Of a stretch of DNA of 64,000 bases, positions 5,239 through 61,383 are shown in pieces. Origin of the DNA: Octopus sinensis. Taxonomy: Eukaryota. The position numbers and the translations under genes are program-made. The notes below the pieces were generated by a model. That model worked only from the letters and a program-made list of their open reading frames with translations. It was not told where the DNA came from and made no database searches. The stretch spans positions 6,696,001 to 6,760,000 of the forward strand of contig NC_042998.1 of the NCBI RefSeq assembly GCF_006345805.1. Direction: 5' to 3'. Each line of letters starts with the position of its first letter. Position 1 is the first letter of the stretch.

Positions 5239-5286
<48 letters not shown>

Positions 5287-5713
5287 CTAATGTAGGATAA
5301 AATTTTTTTTTTTTCGAGAAAAAAATTTTATCAATGGCCAGCATATCAAAAAATACCTTTAAAGGTTAAATTTATAAATAATTTACAAAATAAGGGCAAA
5401 AGAAAAATTCTAATGCCAAATATGCCGAAAAAAAGACAAAATTGTCAATAACCATTATTATTTATGCGTCTCGAAACAAACCGATAGAAATTTCTAAAAT
5501 AAAAAAAAATTTATCCTACATTAGTTATAAATTTAATAGTGTTCACTTCCAGATTCTCTCACTCTGTGAAAGTTTCTAGTTCGAATCACACATGTCTTGA
5601 GATGTACCAAAGATTTTCTATTTTGGATACATTTGGGGTACTTAGGTCTGCTCAGGACTTAGTGCTTGCTTTTTCCATGGGTATAAGTAAGTATTTCACT
5701 TATATTTCACGTA

Positions 5714-5776
5714 TTTATCGCTGAAGAGGGGAAAATTCTTATGAATTAACCCCGAAATTGGGACCTATACGGTAAA
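5714..5776 (+). ncRNA. Type I hammerhead ribozyme motif
   Basis: uuuaucg-CUGAAGA-gggg..cccc-GAAA-uugggaccua-UA-cgguaaa; 7-bp stem I with one G-U pair, stem III slightly mutated. Confidence 0.7.
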
Positions 5777-5802
5777 AACGGATGTAAATTATGTATGTGT
5801 GT

Positions 5803-13695: not shown

Positions 13696-13946
13696 GTATA
13701 TATACATATATATTTATATATATATATTTCATCATCATCGTCATCGTTTAACGTCCGTTTTCCATGCTAGCATGGGTTGGATGATTTGACTGAGGACTAG
13801 CAAACCAGATGGCTGCACCAGGCTTCACTCTTGATCTGGCAGAGTTTCTACAGCTGCATGCCCTTCCTAATGCCAACCACTCCGAGAGTGTAGTGGGTGC
13901 TTTTATATATAATATATATATATATATATATAATATATATATATAT

Positions 13947-14614
13947 ACAAAATTTAGAGGATTGACCACTAAAAGTGGACAGCGTGTATGCTAGATATAG
14001 ACGTTAAAATCGCCATTTTCCACTGAGAATGTGTTCTCAAGAAAAAATTCAGCAAAAAGCCAAAGCGTAAAAATAAGCAAGACAAATGAAAATATACGAA
14101 ATAAAACGATTACCTATGTACTAATTAGTTTCACTTGTTAATAATTTATGTATATGAATACATAAACATCTGCAAGATCATCAGCATAGTCTGTCATTTA
14201 TGAAGCACAATTTCTAGAACTAGATACAGGGCACTCGACCGAAATCCAGCACTGCATAAACTTCCACAAATTATATTTATGTGTATCTTTCAAATGCCTT
14301 CACTTTGGTGCGCTGAGATCGGAAATTACTCTGCAGTTAATAAACTACAGCAGTCAATTTCCCGGCTAGAGAACATTTTTTATTTAAAATTAAATAAGGG
14401 TAGAAATTGATATTAATCAATTAAAACCAGTGGCCTAGCATATTTAAAAAATCCGAAGATTAAAAATTTTTTTACATACTAAATTTAGAGGATTGACCAC
14501 TAAAATTTTTCTTGAGAACACATTCTCTGTGGAAAATGGTGATTGTGATTTTGACTTCTACTTTTAGTGGTCAATCCTCTAAATTTTGTATGTAAAAAAA
14601 TTTTTAATCTTCGG
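13947..14614 (-). mobile_element. Non-autonomous PLE/retrozyme-like element: 531-bp monomer plus inverted 5' segment
   Basis: aatttagaggattgaccactaaaa repeated at 13951 and 14482 (offset 531); inverted copies at 14504-14614; (TA)n on the left. Confidence 0.75.
14114..14189 (-). ncRNA. Type I hammerhead ribozyme
   Basis: cuaug-CUGAUGA-u-cuug..[uuuauguau/auacauaaa]..caag-u-GAAA-CUAAUUAG-UA-cauag; perfect 5-bp stem I, palindromic stem III, GUA site. Confidence 0.8.
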
Positions 14615-15967
14615 AGAGAAATAATGCTAAAAAAATACTTTGCGAAGACAATGTCTCAGCAATCATTGTTAAAGTTCACTGAGTTGAAATTTCTATGATA
14701 TTCGGCCATGAAGTACAAAATATCATTCACCAAAATGTCATTCGAGATGTTCATGATGGTGACACAGTCAAAGATTCTAACAATTATCTTTGCTCTCTCC
14801 TCTTTCACTTATTTTTGTCAGTGAGCAGAAGCCATCGTGGGGCATCCCCTTAAAGGGTTTAGTTGAACAAATCACCCCCCACACCCTGCCAGTACTGTTT
14901 TTGATGCCTGGTACTTATTTTGTTGGTTTCTTTTTGCTAAACCACTAAGTCACAGGGACACAAACAAATCAACGTCACTTCTCAAGAGGTGGTAGGGGAC
15001 AAACACAAAGACACACACACATTTTCACAAAGGGTTTCTCTCAGTTTCCATGTACCAAATCCACTCACAAGGCTTTGGTTGGACCTAGTTTATAATAGAG
15101 GACATTTGCCTAATGTGCCATGCTGTGAGACTGAACCTAGAACCATGTGGTTGGGAAATAAACTTCTTACCACATGACCACGCCTGCACCTGATCTTGAT
15201 TTAATTCAAATGAAGATGTGAATGGCAGAGAGAGAAAAAATGCTGAAATTCCAGTTCCTAAAGGAGACATATGGAAACCCTGACAGTGCCGTGTGCTGGA
15301 GAAGGGAAAGACTGAGAGGGGAGGAATCTATCAAAAGGGGTTACATCATATGTGACTGATTAGGATGAATCATAATGAGTTGATGCAATGATAGATATTT
15401 TAACACATAATTATTTTAGATTTCGTCCACCTTTTAATTGGTGACTTTTTTTACAGTGGTGTAGCCATCAGGGCTTCCAAGGGTAGCCCTTGAGTTGTAT
15501 ATTGACCCAACCCAATTAGGCCAATATGCAGCAGACCCAAAAGTGTTTTCCCCAAATAAAGTGTTGCTCAGGGTGTTCTGCTCCACCTTGCTCCCTCTAG
15601 TTACTCTACACATTTTCCATAGTAAAATGAGATAACTTTTTCTCTAAGTTCAACAACGTAGTATTTAATAATAGATTAAGTTTACTTCCAAAAAGAAAAA
15701 AAATTAACATTTTTTCCGATTTACACAACAGCCAAAAAATCCTTTGACATTTAAACCAGTCATATCCAGCCCAAATATTCTACATGTTCATGTGTAGGTA
15801 TGAACTTGTGCGCTTACACGAAGACTATGAACTTTTTACTCCCTTACTTTTACTCCCCCCCTCACTTAGTGGTCATTCAAATAGCTCTTTTGTCTTAATA
15901 ACGGTCAATCACACAGTAATTTCCCTTTGTTTAACGGTCATTTTTCATAGCATTTTTCCGATGGCCG

Positions 15968-24545: not shown

Positions 24546-24637
24546 CGCCTGCAGAGGGACTTGAACCCGCGACCCTTAGATTACTTCTAAGGTTGACCTA
24601 TAAAAGTCTGATGCTCTACCGACTGAGCCATGCAGGT
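24546..24637 (-). tRNA. tRNA-Lys-TTT: Intron-containing tRNA-Lys(UUU), possibly a pseudogene copy
   Basis: ACCTGCA-TG-GCTCAGTCGGTAGAGC-A-TCAGA-CTTTTA-[19-nt intron 24600-24582]-A-TCTAA-GGGTC-GCGGG-TTCAAGT-CCCTC-TGCAGGC-G; T6 terminator at 24537-24532; three stem mismatches. Confidence 0.8.
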
Positions 24638-25232: not shown

Positions 25233-25290
<58 letters not shown>

Positions 25291-25295
<5 letters not shown>

Positions 25296-26056
25296 TTAAT
25301 AAGGGTGAGAGAATTAGATACTAATTTAATAGCATATCTATTCAACACCAAGTGGCCTAGTGCTCCGAGAACCTGGATTATTATAATATTTTATAATATA
25401 TTATATATTTTTACAAAATAAATATAAGAGAGTGGTCACTATATGGCTCACTCTAGCACTAGTTAATCCAAAAGGTTTCAGCCACAAAAATACATGTTTC
25501 CCATGAAAGTCAGTACGATTGTTAGCTCACACGGACAGGGCAAATAAAAAATAACAAAAATACAGATTATTTTGGGACAATTGTTTCGCTATTAATGAAT
25601 TAAATGTAATTTTACTTACAAAAAAATCCACTTGTAGCTCGTCAGCCAAAACTATCTGGATGAAATCCACTCAATCACACGCCAGATTTTACCATAACGA
25701 TAAATACACGTGTGGTTCAATTGATTACATCCGACGTTATAATTCAAATGCCCCAACTAACAGCGCGCCAAACTCTCACGGAAAACAAATACTGCATTTA
25801 GAAATAAATGTAGCATAATTATAATTAATTAATAAGGGTGAGAGAATTAGATACTAATTTAATAGCATATCTATTCAACACCAAGTGGCCTAGTGCTCCG
25901 AGAAACCTGGATTATTATAATATTTTATAATATATTATAATATTTTTACAAAATAAATATAAGAGAGTGGTCACTATATGGCTCACTGTGGCTGAAACCT
26001 TTTGGATTAACTAGTGCTAGAGTGAGCCATATAGTGACCACTCTCTTATATTTATT
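25291..26056 (-). mobile_element. Non-autonomous PLE/retrozyme-like element: 533-bp monomer, ~160-bp direct repeat plus inverted segment, in a SINE A (TA)n
   Basis: 25291-25451 repeated at 25824-25986; 25987-26056 is the reverse complement of ~25417-25486; (TA)n on both sides. Confidence 0.85.
25570..25651 (-). ncRNA. Type I hammerhead ribozyme with canonical core
   Basis: uuuugg-CUGACGA-gcua...uagc-GAAA-CAAUUG-UC-ccaaaa; perfect 6-bp stem I, G-C closing stem II, palindromic stem III, GUC site. Confidence 0.88.
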
Positions 26057-27094
26057 CTATATATATATATATATATGTATATATGTGTGTGTGTGTGTGG
26101 TGTGTGTGTGTGTCTCCCCAACATCGCTTGACAACCGATGCTGGTGTGTTTATGTCCCCGTAACTTAACGGTTTGGCAAAAGAGACCGATAGAATAAGTA
26201 CTAGGCTTACAAAGAATAAGTTCTGGGGTCGATTTGTTCGACTAAAGGCGGTGCTCCAGCATGGCCACAGTCAAATGACTGAAACAAGTAAAAGAGTAAT
26301 ATAGTTCATGGACCCCTAGTACTACCATTGTGGACCCCAGGTCAGGAACCACTGACCTGGTTTCATAATAACACCAACTGGCATGTAAGGTGCCTTTTAA
26401 TAGAGTCCATTCTGCTGCAACCATTCACCCTTGTTCTCTCCTTCCTTCATTCCAGTTTCAGAGGCTCCGTGAAGGATCATGAGCACTCCCTTCTCTCCTG
26501 ACTAAAAGACAGGGGTGGGGGCGGAATGAACAGGGTCGAGTAGAGGGTTTTTTTGTAGGATGACAGAGTGGCATATTAATGATGGCATGTCATGATTTAT
26601 AGAAGAGAGGCAGATGTGTTAAGGGGTGGCCACCTTTGCTATTTGAAGGTTTGTTAGAATACTAAACACTCCACAAATATCTAAAAAGAAAAACAGAGCA
26701 ACCCTCTAACAAACATCAAACACGTAGAACTGGCTTAACTAGTGGCACGGAAATTGCTTCCATTGGATGAAAACTATGTTGTTGGGTGGCAAATTTAACA
26801 AGGGTGGGTGGATGTGAATGTGGAATAACTGCTAAATGGTGATGCGGTATATTATCTGTTATTTAAGTCAGAATGGAGTGTGTTTACTTTTTTTTTAAGT
26901 AAGTTGCATATTGTCACTAATGACTAGACAAGTGCTTTTGTTTGGTTTTAGAGTTTATTTTCATCTTTTTGGAAAGAATCTAGAAACTAATTATTGTTCC
27001 TGTGCTGAGCTTAGAGAGCAGAAAACCCTTGTAAGCAAAGGACAAAACATTTTCTGAACCTGGACGTGCAAGATATTAAGAACGTGCATGCACA

Positions 27095-27170
<76 letters not shown>

Positions 27171-27172
<2 letters not shown>

Positions 27173-27415
27173 GTCAAAGGGTAATCAGAAATATTTGAAA
27201 TTTCCATTGCCATTGGCCTAGCATATAAAAATTTAGTCAATAGACTATATATTATTCATATAAATACAGTTTACATTTAAACACATAAGAGGTAGCCATC
27301 ATAGGATTCTTTGCATTCTATCCCTAATAGTGGTTTGGAATTTAACTGTCCTCTCTGGCATGCAAAGAATCCTATGATGGCTACCTCTTATGTGTTTAAA
27401 TGTACACTGTATTTA
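27171..27415. mobile_element. Fold-back PLE-like remnant between (TA)n tracts
   Basis: ~56-bp inverted arms 27261-27316/27360-27415; carries the tggcctagcata motif shared with the 14-kb element. Confidence 0.6.
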
Positions 27416-37389: not shown

Positions 37390-37755
37390 TAAGAGATGAG
37401 GAATTATGTATATTATTTACATTATTTAAATTCGATGGATATTTGTCCTCATCTTGTTTGTTGTTAACACAACATTTTGGCTGATATACCCTCCAGCCTT
37501 CATCAGGTGTCTTGGGGAAATTTCGAACCTGGGTTCTCATTCCTAAGGTATTTTTCAATGTTATTATTATTATTAATAATAATAATAATAACAATAATAA
37601 CAACATCGAAGATACCTTAGGAATGAGAATCCAGGTTCAAAATTTCCCCAAGACACCTGAAGAAGGGTGGAGGGTATATCAGCTGAAATGTTGTGTTAAT
37701 AACAAACAAGATAAGGACAAGTATCTGTCGAATATAAATAATGTAAATAATGTCG
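37390..37755. mobile_element. Inverted pair of PLE-like ends with degenerate minimal hammerheads (37467-37510 minus; 37653-37696 plus)
   Basis: Same family and orientation as 7920-8290, with a (tta)/(aat) spacer. Confidence 0.65.
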
Positions 37756-40035: not shown

Positions 40036-40146
40036 TCACATGATAGAGGGATAGAAACATGTTTTGCAACAGGGGAGATATCTGGCTTCTCCAGACGGAA
40101 AAAGAGAGAGGAGAAAGAAAAAACTGTAAATACATATCAGGGTATA

Positions 40147-41370
40147 CCCTGGTTGAACCTTTGCTCCAAAAGAACCAAAATGGATTCAGACATGGGCGCT
40201 CAACACTGAGCCAGATACTATGCCTACGCAGACTTATTGAAGAATCAAAAGCATTTAATCGCGATCTTGCAATGGTATTTGTAGACTTTTCTAAAGCGTT
40301 CGATTCTGTAGATAGGTACAAGATGTTTGAAATCCTTAAGCTCTATAGGATACCAGACAAAATCATTTCTGCCATCAAGGTCCTCTACACAGATACGTCT
40401 TCAACCATCTTAACCCCTGACGGAGAAACATCATCTTTCTCAATCAAAGCCGGAATACTGCAGGGAGACACACTCGCCCCATATCTTTTCATCATTGTCG
40501 TTGACTATGTGCTACGTATGTCAGTTGATACCATCTCTGGCAAGGGCTTTGAAATAAAACCAAGAAGAAGTTCCAGACACCCAGCTGAATACTTGACAGA
40601 CACTGACTTTGCTGACGACATTGCTCTTATCAGTGATTCTCTCTCCAATGCCCAGTCTCTTTTACAATCTCTCAAACAAGCCTCAAATTGTGAAGGTCTT
40701 TACCTCAATGAGGCCAAGACTGAATATATAAACAAGTGCCTGTCCAACAGTGATTGCATCATCCACACTCTCAACAGTGCGCCTTTAAATATGGTTTCTG
40801 ATTATAAATATCTTGGGTCATACATATCATCATCTGGAAAAGACTTTCTAACTAGAAAGGGTATGGCCTGGTCAGCCTGTAATGACATGCATAAGATCTG
40901 GTCATCAAATCTAAGTAGAGACTTCAAACTTGAAATATTCAAAGCCACAGTCGAACCAATTCTACTATATGGCTTAGAAACCTGGACGTTATCAAAGAAG
41001 CTTGAGAGGCAGTTGGATGGAACCTACACTCGCCTCCTTATGAGAGCTCAAAATCTCTCGTGGAGGCGCCATCCAACCAAAATGCAAATATATGGAAAAT
41101 TACCACCTGTATCATCTCTTGTGAAAGGTAGGAGAGTCCAGTTTGCTGGACATTGTTGTAGAGCTGAAAAAGAAGTAATTTCTACTCTTCTCCTCTGGAA
41201 GCCATCTACGCGCAATACCAGAAGGCGCACACTCTCCTACCCTGATGTAATCTCCAGGGATACAGGCATCCAGCAACAGGACCTCCGTAATGCCATGATG
41301 GACCGTGAAGTCTGGCGTAGCATGGTAAATTCCATTGTCTCGACCACGGTTGAACAATGATGATGATGAT
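40147..41370 (+). mobile_element. 5'-truncated RTE-clade LINE with uninterrupted RT ORF (ORF 40059-41360)
   Basis: NQNGFRHGRST..FVDFSKAFDSV..GILQGDTLAPYLF..DFADDIAL..YKYLGS..PILLYG-ETWTL..FAGH; (gat)n tail; the first ~29 aa of the ORF come from flanking DNA. Confidence 0.93.
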
Positions 41371-59243: not shown

Positions 59244-59985
59244 AAGTGATATCCCATAGACAGTAAATTCAATTTCTCTGCTGCAATCTTGAATCGGGAT
59301 CAGAAATCATTCAAAATATGGAACCAAAACTTAGAATTAAGTGACGGCAAAGTAAACTCATCACATTAGCTTGTAGAAAGAAAACGGGTTCCTGATAAAA
59401 CCAAGGAAATTACCATACTCGTTAGGAAGAAAAGGAGGCAGTAGAAACTCCGTATGATGTACCAAATGTAAAGTGTGAATGCACGAAAGGTTCAGTAGGA
59501 TCATGAGCAAGGTCTGCAAAGATGGTACACTTTGGAAGTTACAGATGCATGGGATAAGTAAACACTAAGAGGGCACATAAAATATATTTCTCTCAAATGC
59601 TTAGGCAGTTCCCTAGATGTAGTTGATATGTTTTATTACTTAGATGGACAGATTAGTAGTGGAGGTGGATGCTCTGAAAGCAGAGTGGCAAGACTAAAGC
59701 TGATTAGAAAATAGATCTGACAGATATATATATGTATATATATTAATAAATAAAACATATGCATATATATACATATATGTACGTACCTACCTCTACATGT
59801 ATATATACACGCATATATGAGTACAGGACACCAAAAAAACGTCGAACACAATGAGAAATGAAAACATAGACACAAAACCCAAGGAACTGGACATTTTTCT
59901 TAAACAACGAAAAAATAGAGTACAGGACAAATAACACAAGAAAAAAACCCTTTCTTCAGTCGCCATGGTTTCATCTACTCTACGT

Positions 59986-60176
59986 AATGTAGCATAAAAT
60001 TTTTTTCGAAAAAAAATTTTATCAATGGCCAGCATATTAATAAATACCTTTAAAGGTTAAAATTATAAACAATTTATAAATAAAGGCAAAGGAAAAAATT
60101 TCTAATGCCAAATATGCCGAAAATCGGCATATTTGGCATTAGAAATATTTTCGTTTGCCCTTATTTATAAGTTGTA
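59986..60176. mobile_element. Fold-back end of the 5285-type element
   Basis: Homologous to 5288-5430; hairpin centred at ~60122 (atatgccga aaa tcggcatat). Confidence 0.7.
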
Positions 60177-60266: not shown

Positions 60267-60314
60267 GTCTTACAGCTGTTTCCAGGATATTTATTATATC
60301 CCTTCATCGGAGAC
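60267..60314 (-). ncRNA. Type I hammerhead motif (core CCGAUGA)
   Basis: gucu-CCGAUGA-agggauau-aauaa-auauccug-GAAA-CAGCUG-UA-agac; element ~60197-60708 bounded by (TA)n. Confidence 0.7.
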
Positions 60315-61383
60315 GGTGTGAGAGGATGGTTAAGAAATAGTTGATTTAGATAAGATATGAAATAGAGATTGAGGTGGAGGAAATAAAAGAAAATACATGT
60401 GAGATATGTAGGGATATTGCATTTGTAGATCTATTTTGTTAGGCAAAATGGTATATATATAATATTCCAATACCTTATGAGTAAAATTCAATAGAATTTA
60501 AAGTAATCATTCCAAGTATAGAGTTTATATACAACTTTATTGAATCCAAGGTTGTGTTTAAAGTGAGCTAAAAATAGGGAGTGTATTAGTAGGGTCAAAT
60601 TGAAAACAGGAAGAGAGGAATGGAGAAAGAAAAAAAGAAGAGAAAAAAGAGAGAATAAGGAGAAGAAAGTAAGAAGAAAAATAATAAGATAACATATATA
60701 ACCTCCTGTATATATATATATATTATATATATATATATATAGACACTACGTCACCATAGCTTAACGCTTCAGCATAAGAGACACTAGCATTGGTTGCCAA
60801 ACACGCACACACAAACACACACACACACACACACATATATGCAATGGGTTTCTTTCAGTTTCTGTCTACCAAATCCACTCACGAGGTTTTGGTCGACCTG
60901 AGGCTTTGGCAGATAACACTTGCCCTAAGTGCCATGCAGTGGGACTGAACCTGGAACCATGTGGTTGGTAAGCAAGCTACTCAGTCACTTCTGCGCCTAC
61001 ATATATATATATATAAATCCTTTAAAATGTTTTACTTTGGATCGTGGCCATGCTGGGGCACCACCTTGTAAAATTTTAGTTGAATGAATCAACCTCATTA
61101 CTTATTTTTCTAAGCCTGGAACATTTTCTATCAGACTCTTTTGCTGAATGACTAAGTTCCAAGGAGGTAAACAAACCAACCATGGTTTCTAACGGTAGTG
61201 GGATACAGACACAAGGACACAAATGCACACACACACACATACACACACAGACTGTGTATATATACTGTGACACACTGGGCAAGTGTCTTCTACTATAGCC
61301 TCCAGCTGATCAATGCCTTGTGAGCAGAATTAGTTGATGGAAACAGAAAGAAGCCTGTTGTATGTGTGTGTGTATGTATGTAT

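Follow-up and report, generated by a model that had tools for sequence, protein, structure and literature searches.

A stretch of 64,000 nucleotides of the Octopus sinensis contig NC_042998.1 (assembly GCF_006345805.1, positions 6,696,001 to 6,760,000 of the forward strand; in the following, the window) contains dispersed hammerhead repeats of several families, named here after their approximate position. According to an initial annotation, these repeats share an H-type pseudoknot of two stems, P1 and P2, shortly before their 3' end, which was proposed as a cis-element for reverse transcription. This raises the question which parts of such a structure are conserved between families and what role they might play in a repeat without coding capacity.

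Hammerhead retrozymes in the window

The repeat units are 467-546 bp long (25-kb family 536 bp, 14-kb 533 bp, 5-kb 471 bp and 27-kb 467 bp), encode no protein and contain one type I hammerhead motif each, which is located about 220-260 nt behind the domain motif in the three units viewed. No ORF of ≥ 150 AA overlaps the window copies. The copies are 5'-truncated, tandem or multimeric, and frequently arranged back to back. Based on this Penelope-type (PLE-type) insertion anatomy together with a non-coding hammerhead repeat, they are classed as non-LTR retrozymes inserted into (TA)n, a known class of element. The existence of the 5-kb, 60-kb and 27-kb copies was confirmed. In the list, A and B denote the two sites at which insertions end.

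25287..26058, both strands: whole 25-kb insertion, in a (TA)n tract within a SINE-like repeat
25987-25287, minus: direct arm of the 25-kb insertion, about 1.3 units, ending at site B (from the insertion anatomy)
25987 to ~26058, plus: short inverted arm of the 25-kb insertion, back to back with the direct arm, ending at site A
25569..25652, minus: type I hammerhead motif of the 25-kb copy, with a 43-nt loop II and a short palindromic stem III
13945..14616, minus: copy of the 14-kb family, a single unit that ends at site A (13945), with inverted pieces on its 5' side
14184, minus: hammerhead core of the 14-kb copy (motif scan)
5283..5783, both strands: 5-kb family copy, domain on the minus strand, end B near 5283
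5428-5420 with 5346-5338, minus: P1 of the 5-kb copy (domain strands)
5502-5783, plus: inverted arm of the 5-kb copy, with a hammerhead at 5714-5776 (motif scan)
59985..60174, both strands: 60-kb copy of the 5-kb family, minus-strand domain plus short inverted arm, site A near 60174
27170..27415, both strands: 27-kb family copy, decayed and 5'-truncated, minus-strand domain, site B at ~27170, inverted arm ending at site A ~27415, no hammerhead left

A type I core with three stems was found in the 25-kb, 14-kb, 5-kb, 27-kb, L120, L140, L199 and L076 families, and loop II is long across families (18-59 nt). Self-cleavage of the units is predicted from the hammerhead motif alone; in the 25-kb copy, the predicted cut is between 25576 and 25575. 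An Rfam scan of the window gave 91 matches at E ≤ 1, none of them to hammerhead or other ribozyme families. One tRNA-like match above the gathering score (24546-24637, minus) is probably the head of a SINE.

Several other repeats were observed. Another type I hammerhead family with a short loop and without the 3' domain is present at 60270-60320 (minus), where the hammerhead core is decayed, as well as at L214:2263 and L236:1106. Directly behind the 60-kb copy (59930-59984, minus), a repeat contains pieces of the hammerhead core in swapped order (GAAAC before CUGAAGA), and similar sequence is found behind PLE ends in L084 and L094. A stop-free frame of 437 AA with reverse-transcriptase motifs is located at 40047-41360 (plus), which we take to be RTE-like.

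A structured domain at the 3' end

Genome searches yielded 1109 (25-kb), 3152 (14-kb), 2970 (5-kb) and 2018 (27-kb) first-look candidates, of which 40 per family were scored; hence, these totals are not copy numbers. Among the 40 scored, the best 25-kb copies of full length share 96-99% identity with the query. Further families came from 120 stretches, each 10 kb long, to which a descriptor and an iterated profile were applied; two newly found families were also searched across the genome. Seventeen single-copy representatives were compared, and the partial or very decayed L076, L132, L191, L227 and L264 were excluded from the counts.

The families had been described as unrelated. When the domain is set aside, the 25-kb, 14-kb and L140 units can be aligned with each other (z 3.8-7.0), and the 27-kb, L199, L216, L120 and L076 units form a second related group. 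The 5-kb unit is apart from all others (z ≤ 2.4); thus, the earlier description applies to the 5-kb group versus the rest only. The 5-kb family has the same 3' domain although its remaining sequence does not align. Further long-loop hammerhead repeats without the P1 domain were observed at L111:7177, L179:6842, L202:6980, L104:231 and L223:9695, which indicates that several independent retrozyme lineages coexist.

The domain comprises about 170 nt and has natural compensatory variants in more than 12 families. Nested folds give the order P1, hairpin A, CU(U/C)A, AU-rich multiloop, P1 3' strand, linker, hairpin B and CU(U/C/A). In the 25-kb copy, the following parts were delineated:

25455..25462, minus: P1 5' strand (pairing, fold, family comparison)
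25429..25454, minus: hairpin A (P1b), with stacking on P1 predicted and the proposed P2 5' arm contained in its upper part
25435..25440, minus: proposed P2 5' arm, weakly supported, with one central mismatch in the 25-kb family
25415..25428, minus: CU(U)A and the AU-rich run after it, which reaches end site A; ends of this type in the 25-kb family lie 11-14 nt behind hairpin A
25365..25414, minus: variable AU-rich interior of the multiloop, small hairpins predicted
25357..25364, minus: P1 3' strand (pairing, fold, family comparison)
25350..25356, minus: linker, consensus (R)CYRY(Y), conserved, unpaired in nested folds; proposed P2 3' arm
25304..25349, minus: hairpin B (P4; folds, family comparison)
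25287..25303, minus: CU(U)A and the AU-rich run after it, which reaches end site B at 16-17 nt from hairpin B

Hairpin A, hairpin B and the second end site had been overlooked initially.

The first stem of the proposed pseudoknot is conserved with covariation. In the 25-kb copy, the eight Watson-Crick pairs of P1 (25462-25455 with 25364-25357) were confirmed, and the P1 3' strand is indeed directly adjoined by the proposed P2 3' strand. For the 14-kb copy, the positions of both P1 strands (13994-13987 and 14442-14435) hold, but pairing within the same unit does not, as the 3' strand is located upstream of the 5' strand. The two strands belong to successive units and, therefore, could pair only in tandem or circular RNA.

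Among the 17 representatives, 132 of 136 P1 cells are paired (119 Watson-Crick and 13 G-U). Permuting the partners gave a mean of 87 Watson-Crick cells, and the observed value was reached in 0 of 20,000 permutations; since the 17 rows are related by descent, such p-values overstate independence and the independent events are fewer. In a separate alignment-based count, 97.0% of the P1 cells are paired and six of the eight pairs show two-sided changes, which arise in different clades (positions 1, 2, 5, 6, 7 and 8). Sliding the partners of the whole structure lowered pairing from 82% to 20-40%. The mean pair probability of the P1 core is at least 0.99 in 13 of the 17 rows, 0.76-0.77 in two, and 0.00 and 0.21 in two decayed single copies. 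Within the 27-kb family, P1 covariation is imperfect (ten copies inspected by hand: five Watson-Crick, two wobble, three mismatch).

Thermodynamic folding gave a z-score of -2.28 for the 25-kb domain and values below -2 in 12 of 15 representatives. Stem bases of both hairpins vary between families in a compensatory manner, e.g. GGU/ACC, GAU/AUC or GGA/UCC at the base of hairpin B. CU follows immediately after hairpin A in 11 and after hairpin B in 13 of the 15 intact rows, the remaining rows being register shifts or decayed copies. As a hairpin ending in Y-C and followed by CU is predicted 3' of each P1 strand, P1 would represent a pseudo-two-fold axis.

The structured 3' end domain is well supported and apparently undescribed. 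In the open texts covered, no description of a pseudoknot or a shared 3' structure in PLEs or animal retrozymes was found. A review from 2020 (PMC7761336), in its accessible part, describes metazoan retrozyme repeats as lacking a conserved motif that would indicate their partner.

The proposed second stem

P2 was claimed as a second helix conserved across families. It is paired in 62.7% of its cells, with two-sided changes at two of six pairs; this percentage derives from a MAFFT alignment with a shifted register in some rows and understates the 14-kb clade. P2 can form 6-7 bp in that clade. The young focal 25-kb family has a central A-C mismatch, while P2 pairs fully in its relative L249. The pairing comprises 3-4 bp in the 27-kb clade and about 2 bp in L216 and L148, and a homologous arm is absent from the 5-kb, L110 and L063 families. 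The UGGC assigned to P2 in the 5-kb family is in another register and forms the 5' arm of a local hairpin, 1-2 nt after P1.

According to minimum-energy folds, the P2 5' arm doubles as the 3' arm in the upper stem of hairpin A. The energy gained by forming P2 instead is no more than 6.4 kcal/mol, without the loop cost of a pseudoknot, which usually is ~7-10 kcal/mol. In 9 of the 17 rows there is no gain, and the net value is -0.2 kcal/mol or higher in ten. The initial reading places the functional core in a conserved pseudoknot of P1 and P2, or in an exchange between P2 and hairpin A's upper stem. It would have to overcome these energies as well as the uneven distribution of P2, and appears unlikely to us. 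It draws its strength from the 14-kb clade, where the linker can pair over 6-7 bp with the top of hairpin A (duplex energy -6 to -10.5 kcal/mol), including loop bases which are not used locally. The linker variants of L120 and L199/L329 retain wobble or Watson-Crick pairs, and a hairpin A folded back along P1 would make the P2 contact sterically plausible.

The linker is nearly invariant and, consequently, offers little covariation for P2. In favour of P2, the L140 lineage has the linker CUA in 54 of 55 copies and A for G in the P2 arm. Genome counts gave 972 copies with UGG+CCA, 476 with the linker CUA (control: 1) and just 37 with YAG+CCA, 35 of which are apparently sporadic mutants. Among the first 100 linker-CUA copies listed, 51 have GUGG, 36 YAG and 13 other sequences (assigned by hand). 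The order linker C-to-U, local C-to-U, G-to-A breaks neither pairing and is one inherited series. This path of a single lineage keeps P2 intact, first by a wobble pair in the linker and then by G-to-A; the final step is matched by the C-to-U in the local stem and explained equally well by that stem alone.

In a classical H-type pseudoknot, 0-1 nt separate the 5' arm of stem 2 from the 3' arm of stem 1. Here, about 70 nt (25434-25365) are located between the P2 5' arm and the P1 3' arm. The likeness to classical H-type pseudoknots, including that of telomerase RNA, consists of two crossing pairings which can be drawn in the 14-kb clade. The differences are a loop 2 of ~70 nt, a loop 3 of 0-1 nt and a second stem which rivals a local helix and is not conserved. 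Penelope-type RTs are the sister group of telomerase, and a link to the telomerase pseudoknot had been considered initially; it gained no support. With P2 incompletely paired, its 5' arm contained in a local stem, a mismatch in the focal family and no counterpart in the 5-kb family, the H-type pseudoknot is weakly supported. The term would best be abandoned, or else restricted to a particular clade as an option. It is doubtful that P2 is a functional helix and, if so, it would be one of a particular clade.

Three other structures were considered for this region and rejected. A tRNA-like 3' end or acceptor mimic does not agree with a linker reading CUA, CCG or CUG in 5 of the 17 rows and positioned ~60 nt from the end. 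HDV-like ribozymes are nested double pseudoknots with a P2 closing behind P4; the folds contain no helix closing behind P4, and a corresponding Rfam match is absent. A parallel triplex is at odds with the sole covarying change, which fits antiparallel pairing.

Insertion ends, reverse transcription and known systems

All six mapped families end at two sites, in AU-rich runs merging into (TA)n, and 141 of 147 insertion ends abut TA-type repeats. The sites are fixed and 90-127 nt apart (measured for five of the six mapped families and for L120), and an end is mostly positioned 10-17 nt behind one of the hairpins. Among 94 loci, each extending just 1.5 kb to either side, 47 have A and B on opposite strands, two A and B on the same strand and one B twice; a further 24 have B only, 15 A only, and in five no end was seen. 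Thus, among the 50 insertions with two ends, 47 combine an A and a B end on opposite strands, as does the focal 25-kb insertion (B end at 25287, A end near 26058). Four of the six family queries carried an inverted arm, which biases toward this arrangement; with the two queries without such an arm, 18 of 20 two-ended loci show it. A BLAST-based tally gave A+A at L031 and L034 and A+A+B at L056, which are unseen in the anchor-based tally.

The distances between ends and stems are upper bounds due to microhomology. Besides the 25-kb values listed above (with one A outlier at 45 nt), they are 9-13 nt (one at 21) for A and 9-17 nt for B in the 14-kb family, 10-13 and 3-14 nt in L110, 11-29 and 4-23 nt in L140, 5-22 and 14 nt (one at 3) in the 5-kb family, and ~20-28 (by eye) and 3-19 nt in the 27-kb family. 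In old families, the distances are scattered over 3-29 nt. Of the cis-element proposed initially, the link to reverse transcription is supported, given that P1 covaries and the domain brackets both 3' ends in all six families mapped; the H-type pseudoknot is the weakly supported part.

We consider it somewhat more probable than its negation that the domain is a pseudo-two-fold RNA element which positions a dimeric Penelope-type RT at two start sites. A borrowed RT, probably a dimer, would recognise the domain and start there; the RNA bound would be either a multimer or a monomer cut by the hammerhead and circularised. One subunit of the dimer would bind each hairpin-CU module, with P1 holding the modules together. 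The GIY-YIG domains would nick both strands of the TA tract, and each subunit would prime behind its own hairpin, one ~10-17 nt after A and the other after B, with the help of AU/TA microhomology. Joining of the two cDNAs 5' to 5' would produce the inverted structure and the 'tail' of 90-127 nt. P2 would at most be an accessory contact or switch in one clade. Against this model, the A ends of the 27-kb family are farther out (~20-28 nt), and other hammerhead families as well as the autonomous PLEs of this genome that were inspected end without the domain.

The domain could instead serve RNA stability, compaction of a circular RNA or folding of the hammerhead, with the ends being set by AU-rich runs and TA microhomology alone. 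Retrozyme circles are described as highly self-paired in the accessible text of PMC7229834, and the sequence at either end site is rich in AU and grades into the TA target. Still, other AU-rich runs are rarely ends (few cases remain after the over-extended 25-kb and 27-kb A ends are set aside), sequence conservation extends to the CU behind both stems and to the unpaired linker, and a role in stability gives no reason to expect an A end together with a B end in each insertion; we regard this explanation as improbable. Even less probable is a function of the pairing at the DNA level instead of in RNA, either within single-stranded cDNA or as a site used by an endonuclease or host repair. The motif contains the short palindromes CTAG and GGCC, and PMC11167929, in the part available, refers to previous findings that recognition of DNA by the endonuclease required the tail. 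However, 13 of the 132 paired cells of P1 are G-U when read on the hammerhead strand and would turn into A-C mismatches in the cDNA; in addition, the modules are at fixed distances from the RT start points.

A more far-reaching version of the RT-dimer model is possible, if tentative. Both the Penelope 'tail' and the inverted insertions would then be encoded in RNA: the element would dock a head-to-tail RT dimer and program two simultaneous primings, one per nicked strand, autonomous PLEs such as the anole Poseidon would share this layout, and a switch between linker and hairpin A would couple the sites.

An autonomous partner carrying the domain was searched for. The domain was present at the 3' end in none of the 66 PLE-type loci inspected, out of thousands of candidates. 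These loci comprise 30 loci and 20 larger stretches from a GIY-YIG family search (among 150 matches listed of 5029 candidates), a Poseidon-like family (8 loci) and a further clade (8 loci). Domain matches in L076, L243 and L249 look like separate insertions. The genome has intact PLE ORFs of the 780-AA class, whose ends differ. Two diagnostic motifs had no match in published Naiad/Chlamys/Hydra sequences, a search in which motifs across line breaks are missed, and the cephalopod Naiad ends inspected by eye are without the domain.

Several PLE families with a C-terminal GIY-YIG (L079, L080, L237, L255 and others), some with many open frames of 781 AA, terminate in (TA)n at a distance of 60-190 nt from variant hammerhead-like motifs located upstream. 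The 3' end of the Poseidon-like family (L277-L284) includes a tRNA-like stretch, (AAT)n and a hammerhead-like core, and an inverted repeat in the window (37455-37708) is built of sequence related to this end.

No relatives beyond this genome were found in pattern scans of metagenome and viral collections. The single metagenome match (4 of 8 P1 pairs) was judged as chance, and so were 16 viral matches with 5-7 of 8 pairs, five of which are forced or favoured by the pattern. In a search of sequencing runs, no run recorded as RNA holds the unit. Contigs from four runs, assigned to RNA by guess, cover it, and circle and tandem DNA are indistinguishable in these. Over 25395-26032 of the window, the summed contig depth in run X18 (RNA by guess) is up to ~44,000, and run X12 contains one contig of 565 letters, corresponding to about one unit plus a word length.

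The results bear on template choice by Penelope-type RTs and on the reason for their two internal start sites. The domain offers naturally occurring compensatory variants for mutation and rescue; it can also serve as a model in searches for the partner, and it makes a concrete prediction for the one PLE already active in vitro. In LINE/SINE pairs, a 3' stem-loop is read by the partner RT, and L1 twin priming yields an inverted arm from a second priming. The retrozymes would resemble both in having a 3' RNA structure for a partner RT and an inverted arm from second priming. In contrast to L1 twin priming, the second priming site is fixed and structurally mirrored instead of random, and both sites are located within the repeat unit.

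With metazoan non-LTR retrozymes, as described in the accessible parts of PMC7229834, PMC7761336 and bioRxiv 10.64898/2026.07.22.740005, the repeats share tandem units without coding capacity, each of which has a single type I hammerhead, as well as low GC, a dispersed or multimeric arrangement and a proposed PLE-driven mobility. They differ from those reported there by a conserved structured 3' domain across families, units of 467-546 bp and a loop II of 18-59 nt.

For the anole PLE, the accessible text of PMC11167929 reports that both target strands are nicked and extended and that the RT starts at two internal sites bounding the tail; a head-to-tail dimer is predicted. An AC-rich stem-loop is the sole structure mentioned in this text, which has 0 occurrences of 'pseudoknot'. 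In the template given there, we noted by eye a long-range helix of 6 bp (AUGGCC/GGCCAU, ~+51-56 with +94-99) around the AC-rich loop, with the main start site ~12-19 nt behind it. By analogy, this template would have the same layout as the octopus domain if its second start site lies in the AC-rich loop. The anole PLE also needs RNA up to +172, downstream of the start sites (PMC11167929, same text), which the dimer model leaves unexplained. Overall, the octopus insertions agree with PLEs, as far as described in the accessible parts of PMC8557442 and PMC11167929, in 5' truncation, partial tandems, an inverted 5' copy, two 3' end sites and AT-rich or microsatellite targets. They differ from PLEs by the absence of an ORF, by a tail of 90-127 nt compared to 30-40 nt, and by two start sites which are both tied to look-alike hairpin-CU modules on a covarying helix.
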